Positions 8,916 through 24,841 are shown, numbered from the stretch's first letter. The stretch: DNA of 27,286 nucleotides from an uncultured Gammaproteobacteria bacterium (GCA_964431935.1 CAYSLG010000001.1:2867-30152), one strand, 5' to 3'. The notes: generated by a model not told the origin, from the letters alone. Numbers and translations are program-made.

Positions 8916-10181
8916 TTAAGACTCAATGGAAAAAATAGGAAAATGCTCTATTGTGACCTTTGCCTCTTCCAGTTTATATTTATTTTCAGCATATAATGTG
9001 AGAAGAATGTCTCCCTTATCCAGAACTTGGTCAACTTTTTTTATCAAGTAGATACCGGCCATTTTATCATTCGGAGCTCCCAAAACCTTTGCAACCGTAT
9101 TGAGATTATAATTATTTATCTCCTTAATTTTACCAGAGCGGTTTGCTTTTAGCTCAAACTTGTGCTGTGGAAGTCGTAAAGCGTTGGAACTTATTTCATC
9201 AGAACCTTTTTGGGCGCGTACAATTTCTTTAAATTTTTTGAGAGCGCTTCCGTCGGTAAGTATTCTTTTTGCTTCATCCTCTCCGTTTTTTTTAATGCCG
9301 GCATCTTCAAAACATATGGTAAGAAGTTTGCCGGCAAGCCTCAAGGCCTTTGCCTCAAGTTTCACAGGACGCTCTTTTTTTTGTTCAAGAACATATAAAG
9401 CGTCGCGTCCCTCCAACAAAGGTCCAACGCCGTTTCCGGCAGGTTCAATGGTTTCGTTGATATCCGCAATAATCTTCATGCCGAATTTTTTTCCTAAGGC
9501 CTGGAATTTGCGCATGATTTTTTCAGCATCGGTGTAATGACGGATTTTCATGGTTTTTCCAACAGGAATATCAAGAATGACATGAGTAGTTGAAGCTGCT
9601 ATTTTTTTTGCCATGATTGAAACGATAATCTTGTCAAAGGACTCAAACATAAGCTGTTCTTCAATTTTGATGATGATGTCATCAGCCGGCGCTATGCCCA
9701 GATGCCCGCCCCACACGATACACCCGCCGACAGTATCTACAATATGGGATATGGTTTTTAAGTCAAATGTTACTTTTGCAAAAATTTCCATGACATCGGC
9801 GGTACCTGCGGGAGAGGTGATTGCTCGTGAAGATGTTTTGGGAATTTTGACCCCTGCCGCTGCGATAATCGGGACAATAATAAGGGTGGTGCGCGTTCCC
9901 GCAACGCCTCCGGTTGAATGTTTGTCTGCAATAATCCCGTCAAAATGCAGTCGGTTTCCGGTTTCTACCATGGCTTTTGTGAGAAAATATAATTCATCTG
10001 CAGAAAATCCTTCTTTGAAAGACGAGGCGACAAAATATGTTGTAAGAACATCGCTTAATCTCTGATTGGCGATTTCGTCCATGATGGCATAAATTTCCCT
10101 ATAGGTAAGTTTTTTTCCAAGGAGTTTTTTTTGGATTGCACTTACCGCTTGCATGATGCTTATATTCTTTTTGTCGCTCAT
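8916..10181 (-). CDS. AMP phosphorylase-type (archaeal thymidine-phosphorylase-like) nucleotide phosphorylase lacking the N-terminal extension
   Basis: DKHSTGGVAGTRTTLIIVPIIAAAG and KIPKTSSRAITSPAGTADVME match the AMP-phosphorylase subfamily. Classical DeoA/Pdp has KMSGRGLGHTGGTLDKLE instead. Start overlaps the murJ stop by 4 nt. Confidence 0.88.
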   Translation of the reverse strand: MSDKKNISIMQAVSAIQKKLLGKKLTYREIYAIMDEIANQRLSDVLTTYFVASSFKEGFSADELYFLTKAMVETGNRLHFDGIIADKHSTGGVAGTRTTLIIVPIIAAAGVKIPKTSSRAITSPAGTADVMEIFAKVTFDLKTISHIVDTVGGCIVWGGHLGIAPADDIIIKIEEQLMFESFDKIIVSIMAKKIAASTTHVILDIPVGKTMKIRHYTDAEKIMRKFQALGKKFGMKIIADINETIEPAGNGVGPLLEGRDALYVLEQKKERPVKLEAKALRLAGKLLTICFEDAGIKKNGEDEAKRILTDGSALKKFKEIVRAQKGSDEISSNALRLPQHKFELKANRSGKIKEINNYNLNTVAKVLGAPNDKMAGIYLIKKVDQVLDKGDILLTLYAENKYKLEEAKVTIEHFPIFSIES

Positions 10182-11856: not shown

Positions 11857-11885
11857 TTGACAAACGGTTTAAAATGGTTTTAAAT
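11857..11885 (+). promoter_or_regulatory. sigma70-type promoter of the dcw operon
   Basis: Perfect TTGACA (11857-11862), 17-nt spacer, TTAAAT (11880-11885, 4/6 match); ATG lies 8 nt downstream. Confidence 0.65.
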
Positions 11886-11910
11886 GGTTATATATGGTGT
11901 TTTTTGGTGA
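11861..11910 (+). promoter_or_regulatory. Putative MraZ operator: five direct repeats with a (T/C)GGT core at 10-bp period
   Basis: CAAACGGTTT / AAAATGGTTT / TAAATGGTTA / TATATGGTGT / TTTTTGGTGA. Characterised MraZ sites are short G-rich boxes at 10-bp period upstream of mraZ. Confidence 0.78.
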
Positions 11911-12289
11911 ATACTCTGTTTCATTTACCGCTCCAGGGCGGATTGTATTGCCCAAAAAACTCCGCGAACTTTTAAAAGGAAATATTTTTGTTCTGACAAA
12001 AGGTTTTGATTTCTGTTTGGCCGGATATGACAAAGAAGATTGGGAAGGAAGAGCGAAGGCTTTGTTACATGTTCCGCTTCTTGAAAAAGAGAATCTTGAA
12101 AAAAGAAGGTTTTTGTTTTCTTCTGCCGTATATCTGGAAATTGACGAACAGGGAAGATTTGTCATTTCAAGAAATCTTCTGCAATATGCGGGGTTGCATG
12201 AAAAAGTGCTGATTATCGGAATCGGCGACCATTTTGAAATCTGGGAAGAGAAGCGGTGGGAAAAATATATAAAAACAGCAAACAATTAA
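11894..12289 (+). CDS. mraZ: Division/cell-wall cluster transcriptional repressor MraZ
   Basis: FFGEY, GRIVLPKKLR, LTKGFDFCL, EIDEQGRFVI, IIGIGDHFEIW (two SpoVT/AbrB repeats); upstream of rsmH. Confidence 0.96.
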   Translation: MVFFGEYSVSFTAPGRIVLPKKLRELLKGNIFVLTKGFDFCLAGYDKEDWEGRAKALLHVPLLEKENLEKRRFLFSSAVYLEIDEQGRFVISRNLLQYAGLHEKVLIIGIGDHFEIWEEKRWEKYIKTANN

Positions 12290-12299
12290 CGAATTAACG
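12284..12299 (+). repeat. Tandem 8-mer (AATTAACG)x2 spanning the mraZ stop codon
   Basis: Read directly; the same unit recurs at 15087-15109. Confidence 0.7.
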
Positions 12300-12311
12300 G
12301 ATTTTGTGAGT

Positions 12312-13142
12312 ATGCATACGCCAGTACTTTTGCAGGAAGTAATAGAAGCTTTAGAAATACGCAAAGGAGGCAAATATATAGACGCAACATTCGGCGAGGG
12401 AGGACACGCAAAGGCAATTATAAAACAAGGAGGAAGAGTATTAGGAATTGAGCGAGACATGAATCAAATTCAACGTTCAATGTTCAACGTTCAACGCTCA
12501 GAAAAACTTATTCTCATACATGGGAATTTTGCCGATATAGAAGAGATTGCAAGAAAGAATGGTTTTTTTCCCGCAGACGGCATCGTATTTGATCTTGGGT
12601 TGTCAATGAGACAATTGCAGGAAGGAAAAAAAGGACTGTCATATAAAAAAAAAGACGAACCGCTTGATATGAGAATGGATGAGGCAATTGAAAAAAATGC
12701 ATCGGAACTTGTTAATAGTTTATCCGCCGAAGAATTGTATGAAATATTTTCGCGATATTCTGAAGAAATCAATTCTCGGGCAATTGCTCATACTCTTGTT
12801 CGGTCCCGTTCTGTAAAAAAGATACAAAGCGTTGGAGATGTATTAACTCTTATTGACAGTGCCATCGGAAAAAGCGATGTAAAAGTGTATAGCAGGATTT
12901 TTCAGGCGCTGCGAATTGCAGTGAATGGCGAGTTTGACAATGTAACAAAAGGGTTGGAAGGAGCAATAAAAATAACAAGAGACGGCGGAAAAATTGCCGT
13001 AATTTCTTTTCATTCTCTTGAAGACAGAATAATTAAACAATTCATCAGAGGTTATGGATTTAAGCAAGATTTGATATCGGGAGAAAAGGGATATTCATTT
13101 GAGCGTTCGGCAAAATTACGAATTATACACAAAACAACATAA
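12312..13142 (+). CDS. rsmH: 16S rRNA m4C1402 methyltransferase RsmH (MraW)
   Basis: HTPVLLQEV, YIDATFGEGGHA, FDLGLS, PLDMRMD, FQALRIAVN, ISFHSLEDRIIK, RSAKLR. ATG 12312 preferred over GTG 12306. Confidence 0.96.
   Translation: MHTPVLLQEVIEALEIRKGGKYIDATFGEGGHAKAIIKQGGRVLGIERDMNQIQRSMFNVQRSEKLILIHGNFADIEEIARKNGFFPADGIVFDLGLSMRQLQEGKKGLSYKKKDEPLDMRMDEAIEKNASELVNSLSAEELYEIFSRYSEEINSRAIAHTLVRSRSVKKIQSVGDVLTLIDSAIGKSDVKVYSRIFQALRIAVNGEFDNVTKGLEGAIKITRDGGKIAVISFHSLEDRIIKQFIRGYGFKQDLISGEKGYSFERSAKLRIIHKTT
12469..12496 (+). repeat. In-frame heptad array (TTCAA[C/T]G)x4 inside rsmH
   Basis: TTCAACG TTCAATG TTCAACG TTCAACG, encoding part of IQRSMFNVQRS. Confidence 0.85.
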
Positions 13143-13146
13143 TAGC

Positions 13147-13425
13147 ATGAAACAGTTTATATCCTACATATTTTTGGTTGTTTTTTTAGTACTTATGACG
13201 GTAAATGTTTTTGTTTTTATGTCGGGTATACGGCTCAGTGATGAAATTAGCAAATACGACAAAGAAACAATGGTTTTAAAAAAGGAAAATACAGAGCTTG
13301 AAAAACAGGTGTATGAAATTTCTTCCCTACAGTATGCGGCGTCAATATCCGCCCAGCTTGATTTTTCTCAAGAAGCGGAACCCATATATTTTAGCAGCCT
13401 CAAATATGCTTTAAACCGACAATAA
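13147..13425 (+). CDS. ftsL: FtsL-like bitopic division protein
   Basis: 92 aa from ATG 13147: one TM segment followed by a coiled-coil-like stretch. Sits between rsmH and ftsI; the call rests on position and topology. Confidence 0.7.
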   Translation: MKQFISYIFLVVFLVLMTVNVFVFMSGIRLSDEISKYDKETMVLKKENTELEKQVYEISSLQYAASISAQLDFSQEAEPIYFSSLKYALNRQ

Positions 13426-13429
13426 AAAA

Positions 13430-15085
13430 ATGTTGAAAGCAAAACTTTTATTTCTTCTGATAAGCGTTTGTTTTATCGTTGTTATAGCAAAACTTTTTTT
13501 TATACAAATTATTACTCCGCATAATTTTATTCAAAATAATATAGCGACAAAGCGGATTCTTCCTGAGCGGGGCAAAGTATATGACAGAAATAAAGAGCCT
13601 TTGGCTGTAAACCAGACAACATATCAACTCTATTTTGAACCGAAACATATAGAGGACGCGTTTCTTACCGTAAAGGGAATTGAGAGTATTCTAAAAATCG
13701 GTGAAGCAACGCTGGAAGGAAAAATTGACAGGTCAAAAGACTGGGTTGCGGTAACGGCAGGAATTGAAGAAAAACAAAAAGAGGAGCTGGAGCGCTTAAA
13801 ATTGAAAGGAATAGGATTTTTGGAGGAGTCAAGAAGATATTACCCGGAAGGGTCATTGTCTGCTCATCTTCTGGGGTTTGTCGGAAAAAATGAAGAAGGG
13901 GACAATATAGGATATTTTGGATTGGAGGGGTTTTATGATAAAGATTTAACAGGTCTTCCCGGTCTTATAAAATCAGAAGAAGATCTTGCGGGAAAAGCAA
14001 TATTTGTCGGCACACAAAACAAAATTGATCCGGAAAACGGAAGAGACCTCATTCTTACTCTTGATAAGTCAGTCCAGAAAATCATAAAAACAAGGCTTCA
14101 GAGAGGTATGGAGCGCTATGAGGCAAAAGAGGGATGTATTATTGTGGCAGATCCCGGCAATGGAGAAGTTCTCGGATTATCGTGTCTTCCGGATTTTGAT
14201 CAGGATCAATACTACCGGTTTTCGGAGCTTTTTTTCATGAATTCTTCAATATCCGGCGGGTATGAGCCCGGATCAACATTTAAACCTCTTGTTGTGGCTG
14301 CTGCGCTTGAAGAAAAAGCAATCAAACCCGACGATGTTTTTCAGGAAGATGGACCGGTTACCGTTGGAGACTATGTTATTAGAACATGGAATAACAAATA
14401 TGAAGGAAAAATTTCTATGACGCGAATTTTGGAAAAATCATCTAATGTAGGTATGGTATATATAGGAGAGAAGCTTGGGGATAAAAAAATATATGAATAT
14501 ATTAAAAAACTTGGATTCGCAGAATTGACGGGTATTGATTTGCAGGGCGAAATTGCAGGATATTTACGGCCCCGTCAGCAGTGGTATCCGATTGATTATG
14601 CAACGGCAACATTCGGACAGGGAATTGCAGTGACGCCAATACAGATGATACGGGCTTTTTCAGCTCTGGTAAATGGGGGAGAGCTTTATAAGCCGTTTAC
14701 GGTCCGCGCAATGGTATCACAGGGTACGGAACGGATTATTCACCCGAAAAAAGAAAAGACTATCTTCAGCAAACAAGTATCCGAGACAATAAAAAAAATG
14801 CTTGTTTCAACGATTGAAAACGGAGACGCCAGATGGGCAAAGCCAAAAGGATACACAATCGGAGGAAAAACCGGTACAGCGCAAATCCCAATCAAAGGCC
14901 ATTATGATCCCACAAAAACAATTGCGGCTTTTATCGGATTTGCGCCAGCAAACAATCCTCGTTTTATTGCCATGGTTATATTGAGAGAACCGCAGTCGTC
15001 GCAATGGGGCTCTGAAACAGCAGCTCCTCTGTTTTTTGAAATAGCGAAGGATTTGTTAGTGTACTATAATATAGGCCTACAATAA
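13430..15085 (+). CDS. ftsI: Class B penicillin-binding protein (FtsI/PBP2-type transpeptidase)
   Basis: N-terminal TM, RGKVYDRN, RYYPEG, SxxK (GSTFKP), SxN (KSSNVG), KTG (GKTGTAQ); dcw position. Confidence 0.93.
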   Translation: MLKAKLLFLLISVCFIVVIAKLFFIQIITPHNFIQNNIATKRILPERGKVYDRNKEPLAVNQTTYQLYFEPKHIEDAFLTVKGIESILKIGEATLEGKIDRSKDWVAVTAGIEEKQKEELERLKLKGIGFLEESRRYYPEGSLSAHLLGFVGKNEEGDNIGYFGLEGFYDKDLTGLPGLIKSEEDLAGKAIFVGTQNKIDPENGRDLILTLDKSVQKIIKTRLQRGMERYEAKEGCIIVADPGNGEVLGLSCLPDFDQDQYYRFSELFFMNSSISGGYEPGSTFKPLVVAAALEEKAIKPDDVFQEDGPVTVGDYVIRTWNNKYEGKISMTRILEKSSNVGMVYIGEKLGDKKIYEYIKKLGFAELTGIDLQGEIAGYLRPRQQWYPIDYATATFGQGIAVTPIQMIRAFSALVNGGELYKPFTVRAMVSQGTERIIHPKKEKTIFSKQVSETIKKMLVSTIENGDARWAKPKGYTIGGKTGTAQIPIKGHYDPTKTIAAFIGFAPANNPRFIAMVILREPQSSQWGSETAAPLFFEIAKDLLVYYNIGLQ

Positions 15086-15086
15086 A

Positions 15087-15109
15087 AATTAACGAATTAA
15101 CGAATTAAC
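15087..15109 (+). repeat. Tandem 8-mer (AATTAACG) x about 3 directly after the ftsI stop
   Basis: AATTAACG AATTAACG AATTAAC read directly. Confidence 0.8.
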
Positions 15110-15126
15110 AACAAGAATAATAAAAT

Positions 15127-16350
15127 ATGTTTCAAAAAATAAAAAATACTTATCATCTCCTAAAGGCAATAATTGCGAATGTATGGTACGGATTTCCCAG
15201 CCGAAAACTTTCGGTAATTGGCGTGACCGGAACAGACGGAAAAACAACAACCTCCCATCTTATATACCATATCCTTCAGGCTGCGGGAAAAAAAGCATCC
15301 CTTATTTCCAGCGTATATGCAAAAATAGGAGGGAAAGAATATACTACCGGTCTTCATACGACAACACCCGATGCATTCTATGTGCAAAAACTTATTGCCG
15401 CCGCGGTTTCGCATGAAGACGAATACCTTGTATTGGAGGTTACCTCTCACGCTTTGGATCAAAACAGAGTGTTCGGGATTCATTTTACAGCCGGTGTTTT
15501 AACCAATATTACCCGCGAACATTTGGATTACCACAAAACATACAATCAGTATTTACAGGCAAAAGCAAAATTGTTTTTCAATACGGAGAAAATTATCATA
15601 AACACCGACGATAATTCATTCGCCATGCTCTCAACATATCTGAAAACTATGCGGAAAACATTCCATACATATGGATTTTCAAAAAAGGCTGATTTTCAAA
15701 ATAATATTGGAACAATAATCAATCAGGAACTTCCGAAATTCAATTCATATAATTTTCTTGCAGCATATTCAACAGCCATGCTGTTGAATATTCCGGAAAA
15801 AATAATTATTCATGCAATAAAAACATTCAAACTTCCAACAGGAAGATTGGATGCGGTATATGAAAATTCATTCAAAATTATCGTTGACTTTGCCCATACG
15901 CCAAACGCAATTGACTCGCTATTGCAATATATAAAAAAAACATATGGCGAAACAGGCAGGATTATTCATGTTTTCGGGTCTGCAGGTCTGCGCGATTTTA
16001 CAAAACGTCCGCTTATGGGCGAGATGAGCGGGAAATGGGCAGATGCGGTTATTATTACCGAAGAGGATTACCGCACCGAAGATCCGGAAAAAATCTCAAA
16101 ACAAATAGCTGAAGGTTTGGAGAAGAACGGTTTTATGTATAAAAAAGATTTTACCGCAGATAAAAAAACCTATACTGTCATTATTGACAGAAAAACAGCG
16201 ATTAAAAAAGCAATCTCAATTGCGCAAAAAAGAGATGTGATTATTTTAACAGGAAAAGGCCATGAGCAAAGCCTCTGCAGAGGGACGGTTGAGTATCCGT
16301 GGGATGATAGGAAAGAAGTACTTAAGATAATCAATAATATAAAAATGTAA
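15127..16350 (+). CDS. murE: MurE-family UDP-MurNAc-dipeptide ligase, N-terminally truncated
   Basis: VIGVTGTDGKTTT, HTTTPDA, LEVTSHALDQNRV, TNITREHLDYH, VDFAHTPNA, VFGSAGLRD, LTGKGHE. 407 aa with the P-loop at about residue 35. Confidence 0.9.
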   Translation: MFQKIKNTYHLLKAIIANVWYGFPSRKLSVIGVTGTDGKTTTSHLIYHILQAAGKKASLISSVYAKIGGKEYTTGLHTTTPDAFYVQKLIAAAVSHEDEYLVLEVTSHALDQNRVFGIHFTAGVLTNITREHLDYHKTYNQYLQAKAKLFFNTEKIIINTDDNSFAMLSTYLKTMRKTFHTYGFSKKADFQNNIGTIINQELPKFNSYNFLAAYSTAMLLNIPEKIIIHAIKTFKLPTGRLDAVYENSFKIIVDFAHTPNAIDSLLQYIKKTYGETGRIIHVFGSAGLRDFTKRPLMGEMSGKWADAVIITEEDYRTEDPEKISKQIAEGLEKNGFMYKKDFTADKKTYTVIIDRKTAIKKAISIAQKRDVIILTGKGHEQSLCRGTVEYPWDDRKEVLKIINNIKM

Positions 16351-16384
16351 AAAGAAAAAACTTTTTAAGATTTTACATTGTTAT
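16339..16384 (+). terminator. Weak AT-rich inverted repeat followed by a T-rich tract; possible terminator or attenuator after murE
   Basis: ATAAAAATGTAAAA (16339-16352) and TTTTACATTGTTAT (16371-16384) pair at 13/14 positions. The stem has almost no GC, so function is doubtful. Confidence 0.25.
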
Positions 16385-16414
16385 TTTTATATTTTATTTT
16401 TTATTTTTTCATTC

Positions 16415-17152
16415 ATGTTGACTTATAACCTTGATACCAATATATTTTCTTCTTCGATCATAAATAATAACCATTATATATCCGGTTTCAGCACCCGTTT
16501 GCTTGGTGACGGAAGAAATACACAGGTAATTCAGAATTTTTTGTCGGAAAACGATATTTCGTATGCAGCCCTTGTTTTACCCGAGCAGATACATTCTGCA
16601 AATGTTGCCGATATTACCGAAACCGCGGCCAGAATACAAAAAATAGACGATACCGACGGGGTTGTAACAAATCTGGAACGTGTTATTCTGGTTGTCAGGA
16701 CCGCAGATTGCGTGCCGATGATATTTGCCGATAAAAAAGCAGGGACTATCGGGATTTCCCATCAAGGATGGAGAGGGTCATTGAAGCGTCTACCGGAAAA
16801 AATAATACACGCGATGAGAAAAAAAGGAGCAGACTCGTCAAATATTGAAATTGCAATCGGTCCGGCTATCGGCGATTGCTGTTATGACATTTCCGAAGAC
16901 AGGTATTATGCATTCATGGAAGAATTCAACGGATTTTCCGACAAAATCTTTTCTTTCAGAAGAGGAAAACGGCATTTGAACCTTGCGCTGTTAAACTATT
17001 TGCTTGTGCTTCATGCGGGTGTAAAAAAAGAACATATTGATTTTTTCCCGTTTTGCACCTCCTGCGATAAAAACCGTTTTTTTTCTTTCCGGCGCGACGG
17101 AAAGACGGAAAAATTCGGGGAAATGTTCAGTTTTGTAATGAGAAGAACATAA
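16415..17152 (+). CDS. pgeF: Peptidoglycan editing factor PgeF (YfiH/LACC1 family)
   Basis: EQIHSA, RTADCVP, SHQGWRG, IGPAIGDCCY, CTSC..FFSFRR: the His-Cys-His triad motifs are present. Confidence 0.92.
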   Translation: MLTYNLDTNIFSSSIINNNHYISGFSTRLLGDGRNTQVIQNFLSENDISYAALVLPEQIHSANVADITETAARIQKIDDTDGVVTNLERVILVVRTADCVPMIFADKKAGTIGISHQGWRGSLKRLPEKIIHAMRKKGADSSNIEIAIGPAIGDCCYDISEDRYYAFMEEFNGFSDKIFSFRRGKRHLNLALLNYLLVLHAGVKKEHIDFFPFCTSCDKNRFFSFRRDGKTEKFGEMFSFVMRRT

Positions 17153-17165
17153 AAGTTTATATAGC

Positions 17166-17252
17166 GTCATCCCCGCGCAGGCGGGGATCCAGTCTATAAT
17201 TACCTTATGTTCAATACTTATTCATCTGGATTCCCGCTTCCGCGGGAATGAC
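17166..17252. mobile_element. REP doublet / REPIN-like miniature palindromic element (GTCATTCCCGC...GCGGGAATCCAG family)
   Basis: Two 27-bp internally palindromic units in inverted orientation (17166-17192 and 17226-17252, 23/27 identical) flank a 33-bp AT-rich spacer. The GC-rich units stand out against the AT-rich intergenic background. Confidence 0.85.
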
Positions 17253-17272
17253 AAACAATTGTATAAGAAACT

Positions 17273-18667
17273 ATGAAACAGAAATATACAAACATTTTTA
17301 TCGTCGGCATCAAAGGCGTTGCCATGGCAAACCTTGCCGTTATACTGAAGCAGATGGGAAAACAGGTAACAGGTTCTGATGTTGCCGAAGAATTTCCCAC
17401 AGATGAAATCTTAAAACAAAACAATATTGCATGGTCGGAAAACTTTGCGCAAGAACATATTACAAATTCCATAGACGCGGTTATATATTCTGCTGCCCAC
17501 GGAGGATTGGAAAATCCGCAGGTGCAACATGCGTGCGCGCTGGGAATTGACGCCTTGCATCAGGCGCAGGTTATCGGAGAAATCATGGATCAATTTAAAA
17601 CAACAATTGCGGTATGCGGGTCGCACGGGAAAACAACAACGTCATCTCTTCTTTCATATGCGCTCATCCGGCTGCAGGCCCATCCGAGTTATCTTGTCGG
17701 CTCAACGGGTTTTACCGGCAATGCAGGCGGAGTTTATCAGCAGTCTGATTTTTTTGTTGCAGAGGCCGACGAATACGGTTTGAATCCTCCGGCAGACAAA
17801 ACACCAAAATTCCACGCTCTTCGCCCGGCATACATACTTGCAACCAATGTTGATTTTGACCATCCGGACGTATTCAACAGCATTGAACAGATAAAACAGG
17901 AATTTCTTACATTTTTTGGCACAAAACAATTATTTCTTTGCAGTGATAACGAGTATCTTCGTTCGCTTTTTCCGGCTGTACAAGGACAATTCAAGACATT
18001 TGGATATGCCGAAGACGCCGATATGCGGATTGCCTCCGTAACAAACAGTGAGGAAAAAACAGAATTTTATCTGACATACAAAGGAAACGAGTTGGGGAAA
18101 TTTGAAATAAGCATTTTTGGAGAAAAAAACGTATCAAATGCGGCGGGCGTTGTCCTTGCTCTTATGAATCTTGGATTTTCTTCCGATAAGATACGTGAAG
18201 CGATTAAAGGATTTGGCGGAGCTGCAAGGCGGTTTGAAAATATCGCTTATATAAATAATACGTATCTTTTTGACGATTATGCGCATCATCCGGCTGAAAT
18301 TGAGGCAACGATCAAAGCGGCAAAAGCGCGATTTCCAAACAGGCGCATTGTTATCATTTTTCAGCCGCATACGTATTCGCGCACGGCAATGCTAAAAAAT
18401 GAATTTGCAAAAAGTCTCTCACTGGCTGATATATGCCTCATTGCCCCTGTTTTTGCCTCTGCCCGCGAGAGGGGAGGGGATTTTTCCGATATAGAAAACG
18501 CGGCAAAAATGCAGGGAAATGGGCATATATTCGCTTTCAGATCAAAAGAAGAACTTCTCACGAAGTTTGAGGCTGTTTTGAGGCTGAAGGATGTGGTTTT
18601 TACCATGGGAGCAGGCGACATCTACGCACTTAAAAATGGTATAATAAAGGTAATTGGAGCTTTATAG
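17273..18667 (+). CDS. murC: UDP-N-acetylmuramate--L-alanine ligase
   Basis: IVGIKGVAMANLA, VTGSD, AVCGSHGKTTT, VAEADEY, DFDHPD, GAARRFE, DDYAHHPAEI, FQPHTYSRT, TMGAGDI. Confidence 0.97.
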   Translation: MKQKYTNIFIVGIKGVAMANLAVILKQMGKQVTGSDVAEEFPTDEILKQNNIAWSENFAQEHITNSIDAVIYSAAHGGLENPQVQHACALGIDALHQAQVIGEIMDQFKTTIAVCGSHGKTTTSSLLSYALIRLQAHPSYLVGSTGFTGNAGGVYQQSDFFVAEADEYGLNPPADKTPKFHALRPAYILATNVDFDHPDVFNSIEQIKQEFLTFFGTKQLFLCSDNEYLRSLFPAVQGQFKTFGYAEDADMRIASVTNSEEKTEFYLTYKGNELGKFEISIFGEKNVSNAAGVVLALMNLGFSSDKIREAIKGFGGAARRFENIAYINNTYLFDDYAHHPAEIEATIKAAKARFPNRRIVIIFQPHTYSRTAMLKNEFAKSLSLADICLIAPVFASARERGGDFSDIENAAKMQGNGHIFAFRSKEELLTKFEAVLRLKDVVFTMGAGDIYALKNGIIKVIGAL

Positions 18668-18673
18668 CAATCT

Positions 18674-19651
18674 ATGAGTACATATGAACATTTTGACGCA
18701 TTGGAAAAAGCGTTTGGAAAAGACCGCGTCCAGACATATGCTGATATTTCCAAATACATTACCATTCATACGCCCTGTACTGCGGATGTTTTTATTGAAG
18801 CGGTTACCCGAGATGATCTGATTCTTGCAAAACACATAGCTTCCCGGCACGCAATCCCTCTTTTTGTATTGGGCGGAGGCTCAAACAGTGTTTTCAAACA
18901 AGATCGTTATCATGGACTGGTAATAAAAAACTCGTATATGGATTATCACATAGTAGAAGAAACAGAGCGATATGTTGACATTCTTATTTCATCGGGTTTT
19001 CCGGTTTCCCGGCTGATTGCGCAGACTGTTGAAAAGGGATATGAAGGATTTGAATACCATAAAGGATTGCCGGGCACGGTCGGTGGAGCAATATATATGA
19101 ACTCAAAATGGACGAGACCTCTTTCCTATTTCGGCGACAATCTTAGCTTTGCATTTCTTGCAGACGGAAGCATGAATCCAAAAAAAGTAGAAAAAGGATA
19201 CTTTCGTTTTGCATACGACTACAGTATCCTGCAGAATACGCATGAGATACTTCTTGAGGCAATATTCAGATTAAAAAAAACAGATGCGGGCGTATTGAAG
19301 CAAAGAGCTGAGGAAGCCTTTGTATACAGAAAACAAACGCAGCCCTTTGGCGTGTTAACCAGCGGATGTTTTTTCCAGAATATTTCAGAAGAAGACCAAA
19401 AACGCCTGGGTTTACCGACAGCGTCTGCCGGCGCTTTGATTGATCAAACAGGTCTGAAAGGATACGCGCAGGGAGCATTTGTTGTTTCGCCCCTTCATGC
19501 AAATTTCATACTAAACGAAGATAAAAAAAATGCCCGACTGGAAGACCTGATACAACTTCTTTCCTTGATTAAACAGAAAGTAAAAGAAAAATTTGGAGTA
19601 GAATTGAGGGAAGAAGTGATATTCATTAAGAATGAAGAATTAAGAATTTAG
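18674..19651 (+). CDS. murB: UDP-N-acetylenolpyruvoylglucosamine reductase
   Basis: LGGGSNS, GLPGTVGGAIYMN, FAYDYS, SGCFFQN, AGALID, HANFILN, FGVELREEV. Confidence 0.95.
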   Translation: MSTYEHFDALEKAFGKDRVQTYADISKYITIHTPCTADVFIEAVTRDDLILAKHIASRHAIPLFVLGGGSNSVFKQDRYHGLVIKNSYMDYHIVEETERYVDILISSGFPVSRLIAQTVEKGYEGFEYHKGLPGTVGGAIYMNSKWTRPLSYFGDNLSFAFLADGSMNPKKVEKGYFRFAYDYSILQNTHEILLEAIFRLKKTDAGVLKQRAEEAFVYRKQTQPFGVLTSGCFFQNISEEDQKRLGLPTASAGALIDQTGLKGYAQGAFVVSPLHANFILNEDKKNARLEDLIQLLSLIKQKVKEKFGVELREEVIFIKNEELRI

Positions 19652-19712
19652 TTAAAAGTTAATAATTTTTAACTATTCATTAAATTCTTAACTCTTAATT
19701 TTTAACTTTTAA
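19626..19712. repeat. Inverted pair of heptad arrays (TTAAGAA-type / TTCTTAA-type) around a 9-bp inner stem at the murB-murA junction
   Basis: 19626-19646 pairs with 19685-19705 at 18/21 positions; inner TAGTTAAAA (19649-19657) / TTTTAACTA (19667-19675) is perfect. Confidence 0.75.
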
Positions 19713-19722
19713 TTGAAATTAT

Positions 19723-21048
19723 ATGGAGGATGCATATACAATACGGGGAGGAAAGAAACTAAAGGGAGAGATTACTCTTTCAGGTGCAAAAAACATTGCG
19801 CTTAAAACCATCATAGCGGCGCTTCTTTTTGATAGGCCGGTTACCTTAGAAAATATTCCGCGCATCAATGACGTGTTTGAATTGTTGCATCTTATTGAAG
19901 GATTGGGTGCAAAGGCGGAATTCATAGAAAAAAACACGCTTCTTATTGATGGCGGTTCCATGAATAACAACCGCGTTGACTTGCTTCATGCTTCAAAAAT
20001 ACGCGTTTCATTCATGCTGTTTGCTCCGCTTCTTTACCGGTTCAAACACTGTTTTGTTCCTAATCCGGGAGGATGCCGGATTGGTGCACGTTCAATTGAC
20101 CGTATTATTGACGGTATGAAACATTTGGGAATTTCTATTTCCTATGGATCAAGTACGGGATATTACGAAGCAAAAACAGCAGTTGACTTCGGGGGAACAT
20201 ATCAATTTGAAAAACCAACGCACACAGGAACAGAAACATTAATTCTTCTTTCCGCGCTATCCGGCAAAGAAACAACGCTCAAAAATTGCGCTCTTGAGCC
20301 GGAAATTGGAGAGCTTATTCGGTTTCTCAATGAGGGAGGCGCTTCAATTGTACGAAACGGTGACACGATTCACATACAAGGCTCATCTGCCTTGAGACAA
20401 AAAAAACCATTTGCAATCAGTCCTGACAGAAATGAGGCGGTTACGTTCGCATCGCTTGCGATTGCAACGCGCGGAGAGATAATAATTCACGGCATACATA
20501 AAGATCCAATTCATTCATTTGTTCAGGAACTTATAAACGTTAATGGAGGTGTGGAATCCGTTTCTGAAAATTCTTTGAAGTTTTTTTACCAGGGACCGCT
20601 TCGCAGCTCAACTATTGAGACAAATCCTCATCCGGGATTCATGACAGACTGGCAGCCGAACTGGGCTATTCTTATGACGCAGGCGGAAGGAGAATCGGTT
20701 ATTCATGAAAAAGTATTTGAAAACAGGTTTTCATATGTGGGGGAGGTGAGAAAGCTTGGCGCGAAAATTGACTATATTGAGATTCCGGTAAAAGACCCGT
20801 ACTCGTTTTATCATTTTAATTACCATAAAAATGTATATTACCGCCAGGCAATCAGGATTTTTGGGCCAAGGCGCTTGCATAACGCAGTTTTGACAATAGG
20901 AGATCTACGCGCCGGAGCAACGCTTGCCATAGCTTCTCTTGTTGCGCATGGAGATTCCATAGTGCAGGGTGCATCCATTATTGAGCGCGGGTATGAAGAC
21001 TTTGTAAAAAAAGTCCAGAATATCGGAGGCGAAATTGATAAAATATAA
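19723..21048 (+). CDS. murA: UDP-N-acetylglucosamine 1-carboxyvinyltransferase
   Basis: LSGAKN (catalytic Lys), PGGCRIGAR (catalytic Cys loop), HPGFMTD, VFENRF, DLRAGA, IERGYE. Confidence 0.97.
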   Translation: MEDAYTIRGGKKLKGEITLSGAKNIALKTIIAALLFDRPVTLENIPRINDVFELLHLIEGLGAKAEFIEKNTLLIDGGSMNNNRVDLLHASKIRVSFMLFAPLLYRFKHCFVPNPGGCRIGARSIDRIIDGMKHLGISISYGSSTGYYEAKTAVDFGGTYQFEKPTHTGTETLILLSALSGKETTLKNCALEPEIGELIRFLNEGGASIVRNGDTIHIQGSSALRQKKPFAISPDRNEAVTFASLAIATRGEIIIHGIHKDPIHSFVQELINVNGGVESVSENSLKFFYQGPLRSSTIETNPHPGFMTDWQPNWAILMTQAEGESVIHEKVFENRFSYVGEVRKLGAKIDYIEIPVKDPYSFYHFNYHKNVYYRQAIRIFGPRRLHNAVLTIGDLRAGATLAIASLVAHGDSIVQGASIIERGYEDFVKKVQNIGGEIDKI

Positions 21049-21051
21049 CCT

Positions 21052-22308
21052 ATGAAGTTTAAAAATGCTGTAATTTTAGCAGGCGGTGCCGGTGAGCGAT
21101 TTTGGCCTCTGCAAAACAAAGCGTTATTTTCTTTCTGCGGAAAACCGCTTCTTGCATATCAGATTGAAACGATTCTTCAATATGCCGAACAGGTTTTTGT
21201 TGTTGCGCATGAAAATACAGAAGAATCTGTAAAAGCAATATGTGCAGGATATGGAAACGTGAAGACGGCAGTTCAAAAAGGAGCAGGACAGGCTGCGGCA
21301 ATGCTTGCTCTTAAAGATCATATTCAGGGAGAAGTATTGGTTTTTAATGCTAACGACGTATTCCACCCGGATATTTTTACGTCTGTTTTGCAGGAAAAAA
21401 ATTTGCAGAATGCGGATTGTCTTTTGACGGCAAAAAAATCAGATGTCTATTTTCCCGGAGGATATATAAAACTGGAAGGAAATAGGATAACGGAAGTTAT
21501 TGAAAAACCAGGGGCAGGCAACGAACCATCGCAGTTTGTCCGGCTGGCTGTTGATTATTTCAAAGACGTAAACGAATTTATAAGAAGCATTGAAGAAACA
21601 AATACAGAGCAGGATGACCGTTATGAACAGGCTTTGACAGCTTTTATCCGGAGAGGAAAATCCGTCAGATATATTTCATATGAAAAGGATTGGTATCCGC
21701 TCAAATATCCATGGCACGTACTTCCTCTTCAACAGTTTTTTCTTTCAAAAATCCGCTCTCACCGCGGTTCTCACGTTACAATAGGTAAAAATGTTGAAAT
21801 ACAGGGAGATGTATATATTGGAAACAATGTAAAAATATACGGCAATGCGACAATTGTCGGTCCCTGCTACGTGGGAGATAATACGGTTATCGGTTCATAT
21901 GCGCTTATTATTCAAAGCAATGTTGAGCATGATTCTTTGATCGGCGGATATTGTGAAGTAACACGGTCGCACATCGCCTCGCGTGTTATGTTGCATAGAA
22001 ATTATGTGGGTGATTCGGTGCTTGACTCCGGCGTATTGATGGGAGCAGGCGCAGTACTTGCGAATTTCCGTTTTGACGAAAAACCAATTTCTTCCATAAT
22101 CAAGGGAGAAAAAATATCTACGGGTTTAACAAAATTCGGCTCCACTATCGGTAATTCCTCAAAAATCGGAGTGAATGCAACGATTGCCCCGGGAATAAAA
22201 ATCGGAAAAAACACCATTATCGGTCCGGCAAGCTATATTGATAAGGATATTGAGAACGACAAGTTTGTGTATAAAGGAGAGATAGGGGTTAATTCAAAAT
22301 TCCAATGA
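21052..22308 (+). CDS. glmU: Bifunctional sugar-1-phosphate nucleotidyltransferase/acetyltransferase, archaeal GlmU type
   Basis: LAGGAGERFWP and EKP in the NTP-transferase domain; hexapeptide beta-helix with NYVGDSVL, GAGAVLANFRFD and TGLTKFGSTIG resembling archaeal GlmU; sits directly after murA. Confidence 0.78.
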   Translation: MKFKNAVILAGGAGERFWPLQNKALFSFCGKPLLAYQIETILQYAEQVFVVAHENTEESVKAICAGYGNVKTAVQKGAGQAAAMLALKDHIQGEVLVFNANDVFHPDIFTSVLQEKNLQNADCLLTAKKSDVYFPGGYIKLEGNRITEVIEKPGAGNEPSQFVRLAVDYFKDVNEFIRSIEETNTEQDDRYEQALTAFIRRGKSVRYISYEKDWYPLKYPWHVLPLQQFFLSKIRSHRGSHVTIGKNVEIQGDVYIGNNVKIYGNATIVGPCYVGDNTVIGSYALIIQSNVEHDSLIGGYCEVTRSHIASRVMLHRNYVGDSVLDSGVLMGAGAVLANFRFDEKPISSIIKGEKISTGLTKFGSTIGNSSKIGVNATIAPGIKIGKNTIIGPASYIDKDIENDKFVYKGEIGVNSKFQ

Positions 22309-23285
22309 TGAAAAAAACAGTAACGGTAATCGGCGGCGGGACAGGAACATTTATTGTATTGTCCGATTTAAAAAAGTATCCTCTTGATTTGGGGGTAATC
22401 GTCAATATGATGGATTCGGGCGGATCAACAGGCAGGCTTCGCGATCAATTGGGAGTACTTCCTCCGGGGGATCTTCGCCAGTGTCTTGTTGCTTTGTCGG
22501 AAGTGTCTGATTTTTGGAGAAAGCTTTTTTTGTACCGCTTTGAAACAGGTGACTTAAAAGGTCACAATTTTGGCAATATTTTTCTTTCGGCGCTTGAAAA
22601 AGTATCCGGCTCATATGATGAAGTTCTTGGTGCGGCAGAGCATATCCTGAACTTAAAAGGAGAAGTGATTCCCGTTACGTATGAAAAAACGCATGTATGT
22701 GCAGAATATGAAAACGGCACACAGATAAACGGAGAAGATAGTATTGATGAAAACAGGCAGGAAAAAAGCAGGATAAAAAGCATATTTCTTCTGCCTCCGG
22801 TTTGCGCAAACCAGAAAGCTCTGAGCCGCATTGCCAAATCAGATTACCTTATCGCAGGTCCGGGAGATTTATATACGAGTATTATTCCTATTTTTCTTGT
22901 GGACGGTGTTAAAAAAGCAGTGCAGGAATCTTCCGCAAAAATCATATACGTCATGAATCTTATGACAAAATCAGGTCAGACCACCTGCTATACCGCAATG
23001 GATCATGTGAACGACTTTTCCCGTTACGCGGGAAGATTGCCTGATGTTATCGTCATGAATACCACAGAGATTCCCCAAAATATATTAGAATGGTATAAAA
23101 GTCACGATGAAACGCCGATTGTGAATGATCTTGATGAAGAAAGACTTTCGGGAACACGGATTGTTGTGGGGGATTTGATTAATGAAATACCGTTTTCACA
23201 ACATGCCGCCGATGAAAAAAACAGGGCGGTTTTGCGTCATGATGGAAAAAAGCTGGCAGAAATTTTACACTCTATTATCGCATGA
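22305..23285 (+). CDS. yvcK: YvcK/GlmR (CofD-related) UDP-GlcNAc-binding protein
   Basis: VIGGGTG, DSGGSTGRLR, PPGDLRQCL, GHNFGN, GPGDLYTSIIP, NLMTKSGQT, RHD; 4-nt overlap with glmU. Confidence 0.92.
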   Translation: MMKKTVTVIGGGTGTFIVLSDLKKYPLDLGVIVNMMDSGGSTGRLRDQLGVLPPGDLRQCLVALSEVSDFWRKLFLYRFETGDLKGHNFGNIFLSALEKVSGSYDEVLGAAEHILNLKGEVIPVTYEKTHVCAEYENGTQINGEDSIDENRQEKSRIKSIFLLPPVCANQKALSRIAKSDYLIAGPGDLYTSIIPIFLVDGVKKAVQESSAKIIYVMNLMTKSGQTTCYTAMDHVNDFSRYAGRLPDVIVMNTTEIPQNILEWYKSHDETPIVNDLDEERLSGTRIVVGDLINEIPFSQHAADEKNRAVLRHDGKKLAEILHSIIA

Positions 23286-23653
23286 TAAAAAAACATACAA
23301 TCTCTTTTAAAAACGCTATAAACGGGCTGGTATGGGTTCTTAAAACGCAACCAAATTACAGGGTGCATCTGTTTTTATCATTCATAGCGCTTGGTGCAGG
23401 ATATTTTTTGAAAATTTCCTATGAAGAATTTTTGACAATACTTGTTTTAATCGCTGTGGGTTTGGCGATTGAAACAGTCAATACTGCAATAGAAGCGACA
23501 AATGACGCAATTGATACTAAGTGGCGGGAAGAAATAAAAATTGCCAAAGATGCTTCTTCTGCAGCAGTGCTTATTTTTTCTTTTTTTGCATTCCTTGCAG
23601 CCTGCATTATATTTATTCCAAAAATATATTCTGTTTTTCCGTTTCGCCTTTAA
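23282..23653 (+). CDS. dgkA: DgkA-family kinase (probably undecaprenol kinase)
   Basis: SFKNAING, NYRVH, ETVNTAIE, IAKDASSAAV; three hydrophobic segments. Gram-positive-style members act on undecaprenol, and the position next to mraY fits that. Confidence 0.88.
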   Translation: MIKKHTISFKNAINGLVWVLKTQPNYRVHLFLSFIALGAGYFLKISYEEFLTILVLIAVGLAIETVNTAIEATNDAIDTKWREEIKIAKDASSAAVLIFSFFAFLAACIIFIPKIYSVFPFRL

Positions 23654-23658
23654 TGTTT

Positions 23659-23673
23659 CCTGCCTGCCGGCAG
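23659..23673. repeat. GC-rich palindrome CCTGCCTGCCGGCAG (core CTGCCGGCAG)
   Basis: 23664-23673 is a perfect 10-bp palindrome in an otherwise AT-rich spacer. Confidence 0.55.
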
Positions 23674-23680
23674 CTATAGA

Positions 23681-23711
23681 ACTTTGCACTTTGCACTTTG
23701 AACTTTGAACT
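23681..23711. repeat. Heptad tandem array (ACTTTG[C/A])x4.4 upstream of mraY
   Basis: ACTTTGC ACTTTGC ACTTTGA ACTTTGA ACT read directly. Confidence 0.9.
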
Positions 23712-23717
23712 AATAAT

Positions 23718-24755
23718 ATGTCAATATATCTTTTCGCTGCGTTTATTTCATTCATTTTCAATTTTTCCCTTATCGTGCCTTTTATTAATTTTTTGTACCG
23801 CGTAAAATTCCAGAGGGCTTCTCAAAAAACAAAAGACGCTTTTGACAAACCCACTCCTATTTTTGACAAGCTGCACAGTCATAAAAGCGGAACGCCTGTC
23901 GGCGGAGGCCTGCTGATTATCATAACAACGGTTCTTCTTTTTAGTATATTTCTTTCTTTTTTTATTTTTTCTAATCAAAAAATACAGTCTAATTATCCTT
24001 CAATTATGAATGAAATAAAAATTATTTTGATTACGTTTATCGGATTTGGCATTCTTGGTCTGTATGACGATTTGAATAAAATATTTTTTTGGAAAAAAGA
24101 ACAGTTTTTCGGGTTGCGGATACGACACAAACTTATTCTTGAAATTATTCTTGCATTTATTATCTCATATTGGCTTTTTACCGATCTGAAAATCAGTATT
24201 ATTCATATTCCGTTTTTTGGTGTGTATGAACTTTCTTTTTTCTATATTTTATTTTCTTCATTTGTGATTGTTGCATTTGCAAATGCGGTGAACATAAGCG
24301 ATGGATTGGATGGGTTGGCATCTGGCGTTCTTATGATTGCGCTCGGCGGATTTTGGCTTATAGCCCGATCATTTCTTGATGTTCCGACCTCATTGTTTAT
24401 CAGTGTGTGGCTGGGGGGGCTTATGGCGTTTTTATACTTTAACATCTATCCTGCGCGTTTGTTTCTCGGCGATTCCGGCTCCTTGTCGTTTGGCGCAACA
24501 TTTGCGGTTATCGGGCTGATTCTGGGGAAAGCCTTTGCCCTGACTATTATCGGCGGGGTTTTTCTTCTGGAGGTGTTGAGTTCGGGTATCCAGCTTATTG
24601 GAAAACAATATCTGAAAAGAAAAATTTTTCCGGTTGCGCCGTTTCATCTATGGCTGCAAATGAAAGGATGGGAAGAACCGAAAATTGTCATGAGGCTTTG
24701 GCTGCTTTCCATTCTTTTTGGCGTATTCGGGTTGATGATCGCGTTTATGAAATAA
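23718..24755 (+). CDS. mraY: Phospho-N-acetylmuramoyl-pentapeptide transferase
   Basis: KSGTPVGGG, GLYDD, NAVNISDGLDGL, FNIYPARLFLGDSGS, APFH, GWEEPKIVMRLW; polytopic membrane protein. Confidence 0.96.
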   Translation: MSIYLFAAFISFIFNFSLIVPFINFLYRVKFQRASQKTKDAFDKPTPIFDKLHSHKSGTPVGGGLLIIITTVLLFSIFLSFFIFSNQKIQSNYPSIMNEIKIILITFIGFGILGLYDDLNKIFFWKKEQFFGLRIRHKLILEIILAFIISYWLFTDLKISIIHIPFFGVYELSFFYILFSSFVIVAFANAVNISDGLDGLASGVLMIALGGFWLIARSFLDVPTSLFISVWLGGLMAFLYFNIYPARLFLGDSGSLSFGATFAVIGLILGKAFALTIIGGVFLLEVLSSGIQLIGKQYLKRKIFPVAPFHLWLQMKGWEEPKIVMRLWLLSILFGVFGLMIAFMK

Positions 24756-24757
24756 GC

Positions 24758-24841
24758 GCATAACGTATAACCTGTAACATATAACAAAGATTTATCTCTT
24801 TTTTGCTTTTTAGGTTACACGTTACACGTTATACGTTATAC
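24758..24841. repeat. Inverted pair of 4x heptad arrays (NNNTAAC / GTTA[C/T]AC) at the mraY-murD junction
   Basis: 24758-24785 pairs with 24814-24841 at 24/28 positions around a 28-nt loop. Confidence 0.88.

Follow-up and report, generated by a model that had tools for sequence, protein, structure and literature searches.

Heptanucleotide tandem arrays in the spacers and coding linkers of a dcw gene cluster assigned to Candidatus Roizmanbacteria

In the present study, we describe tandem arrays of heptanucleotide (period-7) units in a 27,286-nt stretch of DNA (GCA_964431935.1, CAYSLG010000001.1:2867-30152; hereafter, the window), which fill spacers and occupy coding linkers of its division and cell wall (dcw) genes. 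Judged by its genes, the window corresponds to the dcw/mur cluster in a genome of Candidatus Roizmanbacteria, within the Candidate Phyla Radiation (CPR). The best relatives of its MurA protein are found in Candidatus Roizmanbacteria/Microgenomates metagenome-assembled genomes (57-63% identity), and neither the genome nor the metagenome scan yielded a relative closer than 63% amino-acid identity. We consider it probable, at roughly 60%, that the arrays are lineage-specific repeat spacers that were generated by heptanucleotide slippage and spread by copying, in an operon without a Shine-Dalgarno signal. No earlier description of heptad arrays in CPR bacteria was found in the literature.

Period-7 excess and unit sequence

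Arrays were detected with Tandem Repeats Finder (TRF) at a minimum score of 30, those of at least three copies were counted, and dinucleotide-preserving shuffles served as the control. The window contained five period-7 arrays against a shuffle mean of 0.08 and a shuffle maximum of 1, and none of 200 shuffles reached five. Related loci, all centered on the dcw cluster and labeled L001-L153, comprised 73 genome loci (1.19 Mb) and 80 metagenome loci (0.84 Mb); some loci are duplicated between the two sets (L125 = L053, L133 = L059, and L075 = L041), whose independence is therefore incomplete. The genome loci held 104 period-7 arrays versus 8.3 in shuffles, with 14, 24, and 19 arrays at periods 6, 8, and 9, while the metagenome loci held 53 versus 4.3 in shuffles. 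With near-duplicates removed (1.82 Mb), period 7 accounted for 139 arrays versus 18, 31, 27, and 22 for periods 6, 8, 9, and 10, respectively. The excess of period 7 over neighboring periods, which had been proposed in a preliminary description of the window, is real in the window itself and recurs in the loci of its relatives. Array-bearing genomes range from 25% to 45% GC, whereas practically no arrays occur in more distant relatives with comparable GC (for example, L124, L131, L136, and L149-151); therefore, base composition alone is not the cause.

The arrays are scattered through the dcw operon, and the gene map agrees with the preliminary description on this point. Four of the five period-7 sites listed there are genuine by TRF, two of them being long inverted repeats with heptad-array arms (Table 1). 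The fifth, in the glmU/yvcK overlap, consists of two copies only and was unreported by TRF, and is thus indistinguishable from chance; the array in the murE/pgeF spacer was absent from that list.

The sequence of the units varies but their period does not, as had also been claimed, both among relatives and in the window, which holds at least five unrelated units (TTCAACG, ATTAAGA, GAACTTT, GTTACAC, and ATTTTAT). The shared N-N-Y-A-A-N-R frame that had been proposed for these units did not survive comparison with controls, since it was fitted, in some rotation or strand, by 54% of the 139 related arrays, which is chance level: the value was 56% for units with shuffled letters and 50% for 7-mers drawn at random from intergenic DNA. 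A TCAAA core was present in 22% of units versus 4-6% in controls (0/200) and a TAAC core in 17% versus 10%, and in intergenic arrays both were equally common in either orientation. The rotated unit consensus carried 3.89 bits versus 3.0-3.4 for shuffled units, and identical or one-mismatch units between genomes were approximately twofold commoner than expected from shuffled or random intergenic heptamers. Units within one genome were also more alike than those between GC-matched genomes (21.5% versus 13.5%, p=0.014). Stop-codon avoidance in all three frames may account for part of the TCAAA preference in coding arrays; a comparison of stop-codon content between the sense and antisense strands of the units was uninformative. 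Regarding individual families, the unit family of the dgkA/mraY spacer, including its A/C variant, was also found in the murE of L123/L119 and at murB/murA in L018, and the GTTAYAC family of the mraY/murD spacer recurred at ftsQ/ftsA (L020), at murB/murA (L104), and in L004, L077, and L099.

Position, structure, and turnover

Among 146 arrays, 133 were dcw-associated. The main junctions were pbp/murE, murB/murA, dgkA/mraY, murE/pgeF, mraY/murD, and mraZ/rsmH, together with ftsW/murG, ftsQ/ftsA, and ftsA/ftsZ downstream; lag-7 autocorrelation in the relatives was strongest at pbp/murE (0.57 and 0.53) and reached 0.51 at murE/pgeF. In half of the cases, no more than 10 nt separate the end of the array from the following start codon, and in more than half, the array begins at most 10 nt from the stop codon upstream or overlaps it. 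A given junction measures 0-16 nt in genomes that lack an array and 30-150 nt in those that carry one, which indicates that the array is the spacer itself and is dispensable.

In dcw spacers of at least 25 nt, the lag-7 excess was +0.047 (bootstrap confidence interval 0.034-0.066; 255 spacers) versus +0.005 in 87 same-strand spacers outside the dcw cluster on the same contigs and -0.002 between opposed genes; the window alone showed the same direction (lag-7 value of 0.49 in dcw versus 0.24 in non-dcw spacers). Array-positive loci carried 1.77 arrays per 10 kb inside the cluster and 0.71 outside (p=8e-5). The density outside, approximately 0.4-0.7 per 10 kb in the flanks of these dcw-centered loci, still exceeded that of shuffles (approximately 0.06), and the arrays are therefore concentrated in the dcw cluster without being exclusive to it. 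The genome-wide action suggested in the preliminary description was not seen in the DNA sampled, given the near-absence of a lag-7 signal in the non-dcw same-strand spacers and of arrays in more distant relatives with the same GC content.

In 38 cases, the array is located well within an open reading frame (ORF) supported by homology, mostly at RsmH residues ~52-63, at MurE residues ~165-195, and at the MurC C-terminus. Alignments showed that these arrays replace a variable linker of about equal length without adding residues, and the reading frame was kept in all of the in-ORF arrays observed. Within an ORF, a period of 7 translates into seven-residue peptide repeats, such as QISNIKY and KSKVKSQ, with a super-period of 21 nt or 7 amino acids. 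The rsmH array of the window sits in the variable linker that follows the G-I/L-D/E-x-D motif, in an ORF that is intact and scores 242.7 bits against the RsmH profile, and an array in this linker was also present at the matching position in at least 10 related genomes.

About half of the spacers form a long hairpin between an A-rich 5' arm and its T-rich complement on the 3' side, and heptad spacers are polar on the sense strand, with the 5' half A-rich and the 3' half T-rich (Wilcoxon p=1.5e-4). RNA folding z-scores fell below -2 in approximately 46% of dcw spacers versus 30% of other spacers, which is only a moderate lowering. Many arrays are direct-only and unstructured as RNA, and fold-based accessibility of the start codon did not discriminate heptad from non-heptad spacers.

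The changes between relatives were whole-unit indels, the presence or absence of whole spacers, and copying between junctions. Between L049 and L052 (95.5% identical), the murE/pgeF spacers are exactly one TTTTGAC unit apart, and the murB/murA spacer was replaced, the two genomes carrying unrelated arrays there. Since the murB/murA spacer of L052 is a near copy of its own murE/pgeF spacer, non-reciprocal copying between junctions 3 kb apart appears to have occurred. The same unit is present in 3.6 and 9 copies at murA/glmU in L095 and L102, respectively, and L091 and L100 (85% identical) have spacers of 0 versus 112 nt at murE/pgeF and 7 versus 163 nt at ftsW/murG. Differences of 7 nt separate L118 from L123 at ftsA/ftsZ and L095 from L102 at ftsW/murG; among 28 length differences between spacers, however, just 5 are divisible by 7, many spacers having been replaced outright. 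In the 99.9%-identical genomes L118 and L119, the arrays are the same and show no length differences, which suggests that the arrays are fast-evolving but not hypermutable.

The same sites also host other elements. The pgeF/murC spacer of the window contains an 87-nt palindromic element that resembles a miniature inverted-repeat transposable element (MITE), with the form GTCAT...ATGAC and the terminal inverted repeats GTCATCCCCGCGCAGGCGGGGATCCAG and CTGGATTCCCGCTTCCGCGGGAATGAC, each end of which is itself a GC hairpin. Related copies were found at other dcw junctions in L013 and L051, and a related element was found in frame in the RsmH linker of L012. A GC-rich palindrome, CCTGCCTGCCGGCAGGCAGG, occurs in distant Roizmanbacteria both between dcw genes and, in frame, within rsmH and murC, at permissive positions that also host heptad arrays, and is shortened in the window to CCTGCCTGCCGGCAG. 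These observations suggest that the spacers and linkers are generally permissive landing sites.

Regarding translation and transcription, no Shine-Dalgarno signal was found upstream of the genes sampled (the window and L001-L153), and Shine-Dalgarno-like 4-mers were depleted at positions -20 to -4 (6.8% versus 13.7% in a control window; 1,394 start codons). The last 13 nt before start codons are A/T-rich, with T at -1 in 65% of genes. Several monocistronic genes carry TATAAT-like boxes 6-12 nt before the ATG, which suggests leaderless or very short-leader mRNAs in this lineage. Sigma-70-like promoters in the region were not enriched over shuffles (48 versus 40.3 +/- 7.7) and a terminator scan was not above shuffles (11 versus 14); the arrays are thus not obviously promoters or intrinsic terminators. 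A search of Rfam returned no family at gathering thresholds.

Slippage, spread, and rival explanations

The arrays probably arose by replication slippage, through the heptamer bias already proposed for bacterial polymerases. Template switching or gene conversion among neighboring arrays would have carried them to other sites close by, and they probably persist as tolerated intercistronic spacers. Considering the absence of a Shine-Dalgarno signal and the A/T-rich start regions, the AU-rich spacers and hairpins may tune the translational coupling or mRNA stability of single cistrons. A dedicated enzyme or reader protein is not required. Several points weigh against this reading. Slippage alone leaves unexplained why the signal is lacking between other same-strand genes of the contigs sampled, and it explains neither the TCAAA core, present in 22% versus approximately 5% of units, nor the identity of units in 1.26% versus 0.5% of between-genome pairs; the GTTAYAC and GTTCAAA/GTGCAAA families moreover recur at different junctions in distant genomes. 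The proportion of junctions with an array did not differ significantly between dcw and non-dcw genes (4.5% versus 2.7%, Fisher p=0.42); the dcw concentration is significant by the per-bp and autocorrelation tests only. The sample outside the cluster is limited to approximately 0.39 Mb, from which local clustering is inseparable from a dcw-specific function. Near-perfect arrays inside essential genes (murE x7.7 in L049/L052), in which a slip by one unit would be lethal, argue for low slippage rates or for the import of ready-made arrays, and any role of the arrays in expression is putative only. Because slippage alone leaves the dcw concentration, the unit families, and the in-ORF arrays unexplained, explanations based on mobile hairpins or on a heptad-reading protein stay in contention.

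The hairpin spacers may instead be small non-autonomous mobile elements, of the MITE or repetitive extragenic palindromic (REP) kind and comparable to Rickettsia palindromic elements, which inserted between or in frame within genes and in which the heptads of the arms are incidental or were acquired after insertion. Whole hairpins of 112-163 nt are indeed present or absent between 85%-identical genomes, related copies occupy several junctions per genome (three in L004, two in L100, and two in L052), bona fide palindromic elements (the 87-nt MITE-like element and CCTGCCTGCCGGCAGGCAGG) are hosted at the same sites, and the RsmH linkers of L012 and L093 have each received an element in frame. We nevertheless regard this origin as unlikely: no conserved termini or near-identical multicopy consensus was found, comparisons of empty and filled sites revealed no target-site duplication or shared ends, and no transposase is linked to the hairpins. 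Units drift continuously, copy number moves in steps of 7 nt, many arrays are direct-only and unstructured, and the clustering obtained by BLAST rests on low-complexity similarity.

A cis-regulatory role, in which a nucleic-acid-binding protein would read the arrays in a 7-nt register and coordinate dcw expression, also appears rather improbable. On DNA, the arrays would be operators for a ribbon-helix-helix (RHH) repressor of the omega (ParB-pSM19035) type, one dimer per 7-bp heptad; on RNA, a protein of the cold-shock or KH-domain type would bind them. With 3-10 units in direct or inverted order, the arrays resemble the parS sites and operators of omega (PMC9499535), and the period-8 minority resembles MetJ/ParG-type spacing. 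The concentration of the signal in one operon, the enrichment of TCAAA and TAAC cores in both intergenic orientations, the greater likeness of units within than between genomes, and the sense-strand polarity would also agree with a reader. Such a protein is difficult to reconcile with several unrelated units in one genome and with arrays that are dispensable at every junction. Among the window ORFs scanned, no gene for an RHH or other small DNA-binding protein was found except MraZ, which appears to have its own period-10 ATGG operator at the mraZ promoter, promoters are not enriched in the region, and no Rfam family matched. A more elaborate form, to which we likewise give little credence, is an operon-wide code for bacteria without Shine-Dalgarno initiation, in which a dedicated protein of one of these kinds would bind units with TCAAA or TAAC cores in a 7-nt register and, jointly with the A-arm/T-arm hairpins, set the relative output of each dcw cistron; in a variant, the heptad hairpins would be a new self-copying intercistronic element.

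The idea put forward in the preliminary description, a genome-wide length-specific process such as a 7-nt templated addition by a reverse transcriptase or primase-polymerase, or a protein that reads YAA every 7 bp, is very unlikely. It is consistent with a conserved period over varying sequence and with the excess of arrays over shuffles outside the dcw zone. Nothing points to a templated-addition enzyme or to a dedicated YAA reader: the proposed frame is at chance level, non-dcw spacers carry no lag-7 signal, the changes resemble slippage, copying, and deletion rather than terminal addition, and no reverse transcriptase or primase-polymerase is encoded in the window. A heptamer bias is, according to the summary in PMC4692102, known in bacteria without any such enzyme. 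Hardly more plausible are contingency loci, in which slipped-strand changes in copy number would switch or tune dcw genes by phase variation. A unit length indivisible by three, the placement of arrays immediately before start codons and within ORFs, and whole-unit indels between relatives would be expected of such loci, but the targets are essential housekeeping genes (murE and murC), the 99.9%-identical pair shows no length differences, and every in-ORF array observed is in frame.

Heptameric repeats of other bacteria provide the closest comparisons. Short tandemly repeated repetitive (STRR) sequences comprise three families with fixed consensus units, which are dispersed genome-wide in heterocystous cyanobacteria. 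They had been cited as a precedent for the present arrays, fairly so in that a lineage-restricted tandem heptanucleotide unit at gene boundaries is common to both; in contrast, the units described herein are diverse, AT-rich, and not fixed, and belong to a different phylum, that of Candidatus Roizmanbacteria. Heptamers are over-represented among bacterial simple sequence repeats, and an origin by polymerase slippage has been suggested for them (Mrazek et al. 2007, in the summary of PMC4692102); the over-representation and its explanation by slippage are thus, as far as that summary goes, already published for other bacteria. Intergenic heptamer arrays stay between the same genes while their length and sequence vary, with occasional inverted pairs, and include GGGAATC in Xanthomonas and GGGGAYT in Nostoc (PMC4692102). 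The arrays in the present study share with these repeats the head-to-tail 7-nt units in excess of neighboring periods and shuffles, the intergenic position, inverted pairs that form stem-loops, and whole-unit length steps between related genomes. They differ from the Xanthomonas and Nostoc heptamers in having AT-rich units of many kinds per genome without G-quadruplex potential, in their concentration in one operon of the DNA sampled, in their in-frame occurrence in ORFs, and in a CPR host without a Shine-Dalgarno signal.

Other systems are less similar. The omega sites consist of 7-10 contiguous WATCACW heptads in direct and inverted orientation (PMC9499535), and the present arrays likewise have contiguous 7-bp units in both orientations; however, the omega sites follow one consensus, overlap promoters, and adjoin the omega gene, whereas the units examined here are heterogeneous, show no promoter enrichment, and are accompanied by no RHH domain among the window ORFs scanned. 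Borg tandem repeats resemble the heptad arrays in being A-rich, fast-evolving, locally arising, and genome-specific, and in occurring in intergenic regions and in ORFs, often from the ORF end, but have unit lengths that vary widely and, in ORFs, are always divisible by three (PMC9879509), whereas period 7 persists inside the ORFs described herein. With Rickettsia palindromic elements, MITEs, and REPs, the likeness lies in small palindromic insertions between and in frame within genes, presence/absence polymorphism, and several copies per genome; unlike in these elements, neither a consensus nor termini are conserved among the heptad arrays, target-site duplications are lacking, and many arrays are not palindromic. 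The arrays also differ from MraZ boxes, which have a spacing of approximately 10 bp at the mraZ promoter, and from phase-variable loci, since near-identical genomes show no length heterogeneity.

Candidatus Roizmanbacteria and other CPR bacteria are uncultured, and repeat-built spacers and hairpins, which turn over rapidly and in units of 7 nt, are present at junctions throughout the most conserved bacterial operon in the loci sampled. If neutral, the arrays represent a clean natural record of slippage bias and local template switching in a reduced genome, and show that the essential RsmH, MurE, and MurC proteins tolerate linkers built of out-of-frame repeats; if functional, they would constitute a novel class of control element between cistrons. 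In practice, they are useful strain markers and are likely to cause errors of assembly and gene calling in metagenome-derived CPR genomes.

Features and genes of the region

Table 1. Repeat arrays, palindromic elements, and selected genes (window positions unless a related locus is named)
Feature	Position	Strand	Basis	Remarks
Array TTCAACG/TTCAATG x4.6	12469..12500	+	TRF	Inside rsmH, codons ~53-63; in-frame reading NQIQRSMFNVQRS
Array ATTTTAT x5.7, T-rich	16370..16409	+	TRF	Fills murE/pgeF spacer to pgeF start codon; unstructured as RNA (z=+0.8)
murB/murA spacer hairpin	19625..19714	+	TRF, inverted-repeat search, RNA folding	A-rich arm of ATTAAGA units (19625-19665) overlaps the last 8 codons and stop codon of murB; T-rich arm of TCTTAAC/TTTTAAC units (19666-19714) ends 8 nt before murA ATG; TRF arrays 19625-19648 (ATTAAGA x3.4) and 19686-19712 (TCTTAAC x3.9); inverted repeat 19626-19705, 40-nt arms, 83% complementary, loop 0; RNA minimum free energy (MFE) -23.7 kcal/mol, z=-5.0, 0/200 shuffles
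Direct array GAACTTT/GCACTTT x4.7	23679..23711	+	TRF	dgkA/mraY spacer, ends 6 nt before mraY ATG; minus-strand units TCAAAGT/GCAAAGT; unstructured as RNA (z=-0.45)
mraY/murD spacer hairpin	24757..24841	+	TRF, inverted-repeat search, RNA folding	Ends ~10 nt before murD ATG (24851); 5' arm ATAACGT/ATAACCT/GTAACAT, 28-nt loop, 3' arm GTTACAC/GTTATAC; TRF arrays 24760-24786 (x3.9) and 24814-24838 (GTTACAC x3.6); inverted repeat 24760-24839, 26-nt arms, 88% complementary; MFE -22.5 kcal/mol, z=-4.2
Period-8 array AATTAACG x2.5	12284..12303	+	TRF	mraZ/rsmH spacer
Period-8 array AATTAACG x2.9	15087..15109	+	TRF	pbp/murE spacer; 100% matches; RNA MFE 0, unstructured
AATTCAA AATTCCA, two copies	22291..22304	+	Unreported by TRF at minimum score 30	glmU/yvcK overlap
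MITE-like element, 87 nt	17166-17252			pgeF/murC spacer
Shortened palindrome CCTGCCTGCCGGCAG	23659-23673
Palindrome CCTGCCTGCCGGCAGGCAGG	L014:8274, L047:8286, L093:230 and 2965, L029:9959, L118:2639
mraZ promoter	11857-11897			TTGACA (11857-11862), 17-nt spacer, TTAAAT (11880-11885), 8 nt to ATG
ATGG boxes	11874, 11884, 11894			Third box is the mraZ start codon
Phosphorylase gene	8916-10181
murE	15127-16350	+
glmU	21052-22308	+
DgkA-family kinase gene	23282-23653	+
Insertion beside murD	L052:15000-21200

The sharing of one 8-nt unit, AATTAACG, by two junctions separated by 2.8 kb represents a within-genome dialect, similar to those of the heptad units in L004, L008, and L052, and a similar unit was found in the murC of L024.

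In the mraZ promoter, the three ATGG boxes follow each other at intervals of exactly 10 nt, and the layout of promoter and boxes is kept in approximately 40 related loci. From its sequence, the site looks like an MraZ autoregulatory operator with a leaderless or near-leaderless transcript. The possibility that the heptad arrays are themselves the MraZ operator was rejected, this conserved period-10 triplet being taken as the real one.

The genes of the plus strand between 11.9 and 26.2 kb are, in order, mraZ, rsmH, an ftsL/DivIC-like gene, a class B penicillin-binding protein gene (pbp), murE, pgeF, murC, murB, murA, an archaeal-type glmU, yvcK, a DgkA-family kinase gene, mraY, and murD, and upstream of mraZ the window carries murJ, an AMP/thymidine phosphorylase gene, mltG, ftsK, pnp, and rpsO. 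The MurE protein has just 407 amino acids and its profile match begins only at position 88, which suggests that the N-terminal domain is missing; MurE is similarly short in related loci (384-412 amino acids). GlmU is of the archaeal bifunctional type (TIGR03992) and the phosphorylase of the archaeal AMP/thymidine phosphorylase type, both of which are common in CPR genomes. Beside murD, L052 carries an insertion with an ORF of approximately 915 amino acids followed by a CRISPR array, the 25-nt repeat of which, CACCGAAGGTTAGGGACAAAAAGGC, separates short spacers of approximately 17-20 nt; the insertion is absent in the 95.5%-identical L049.

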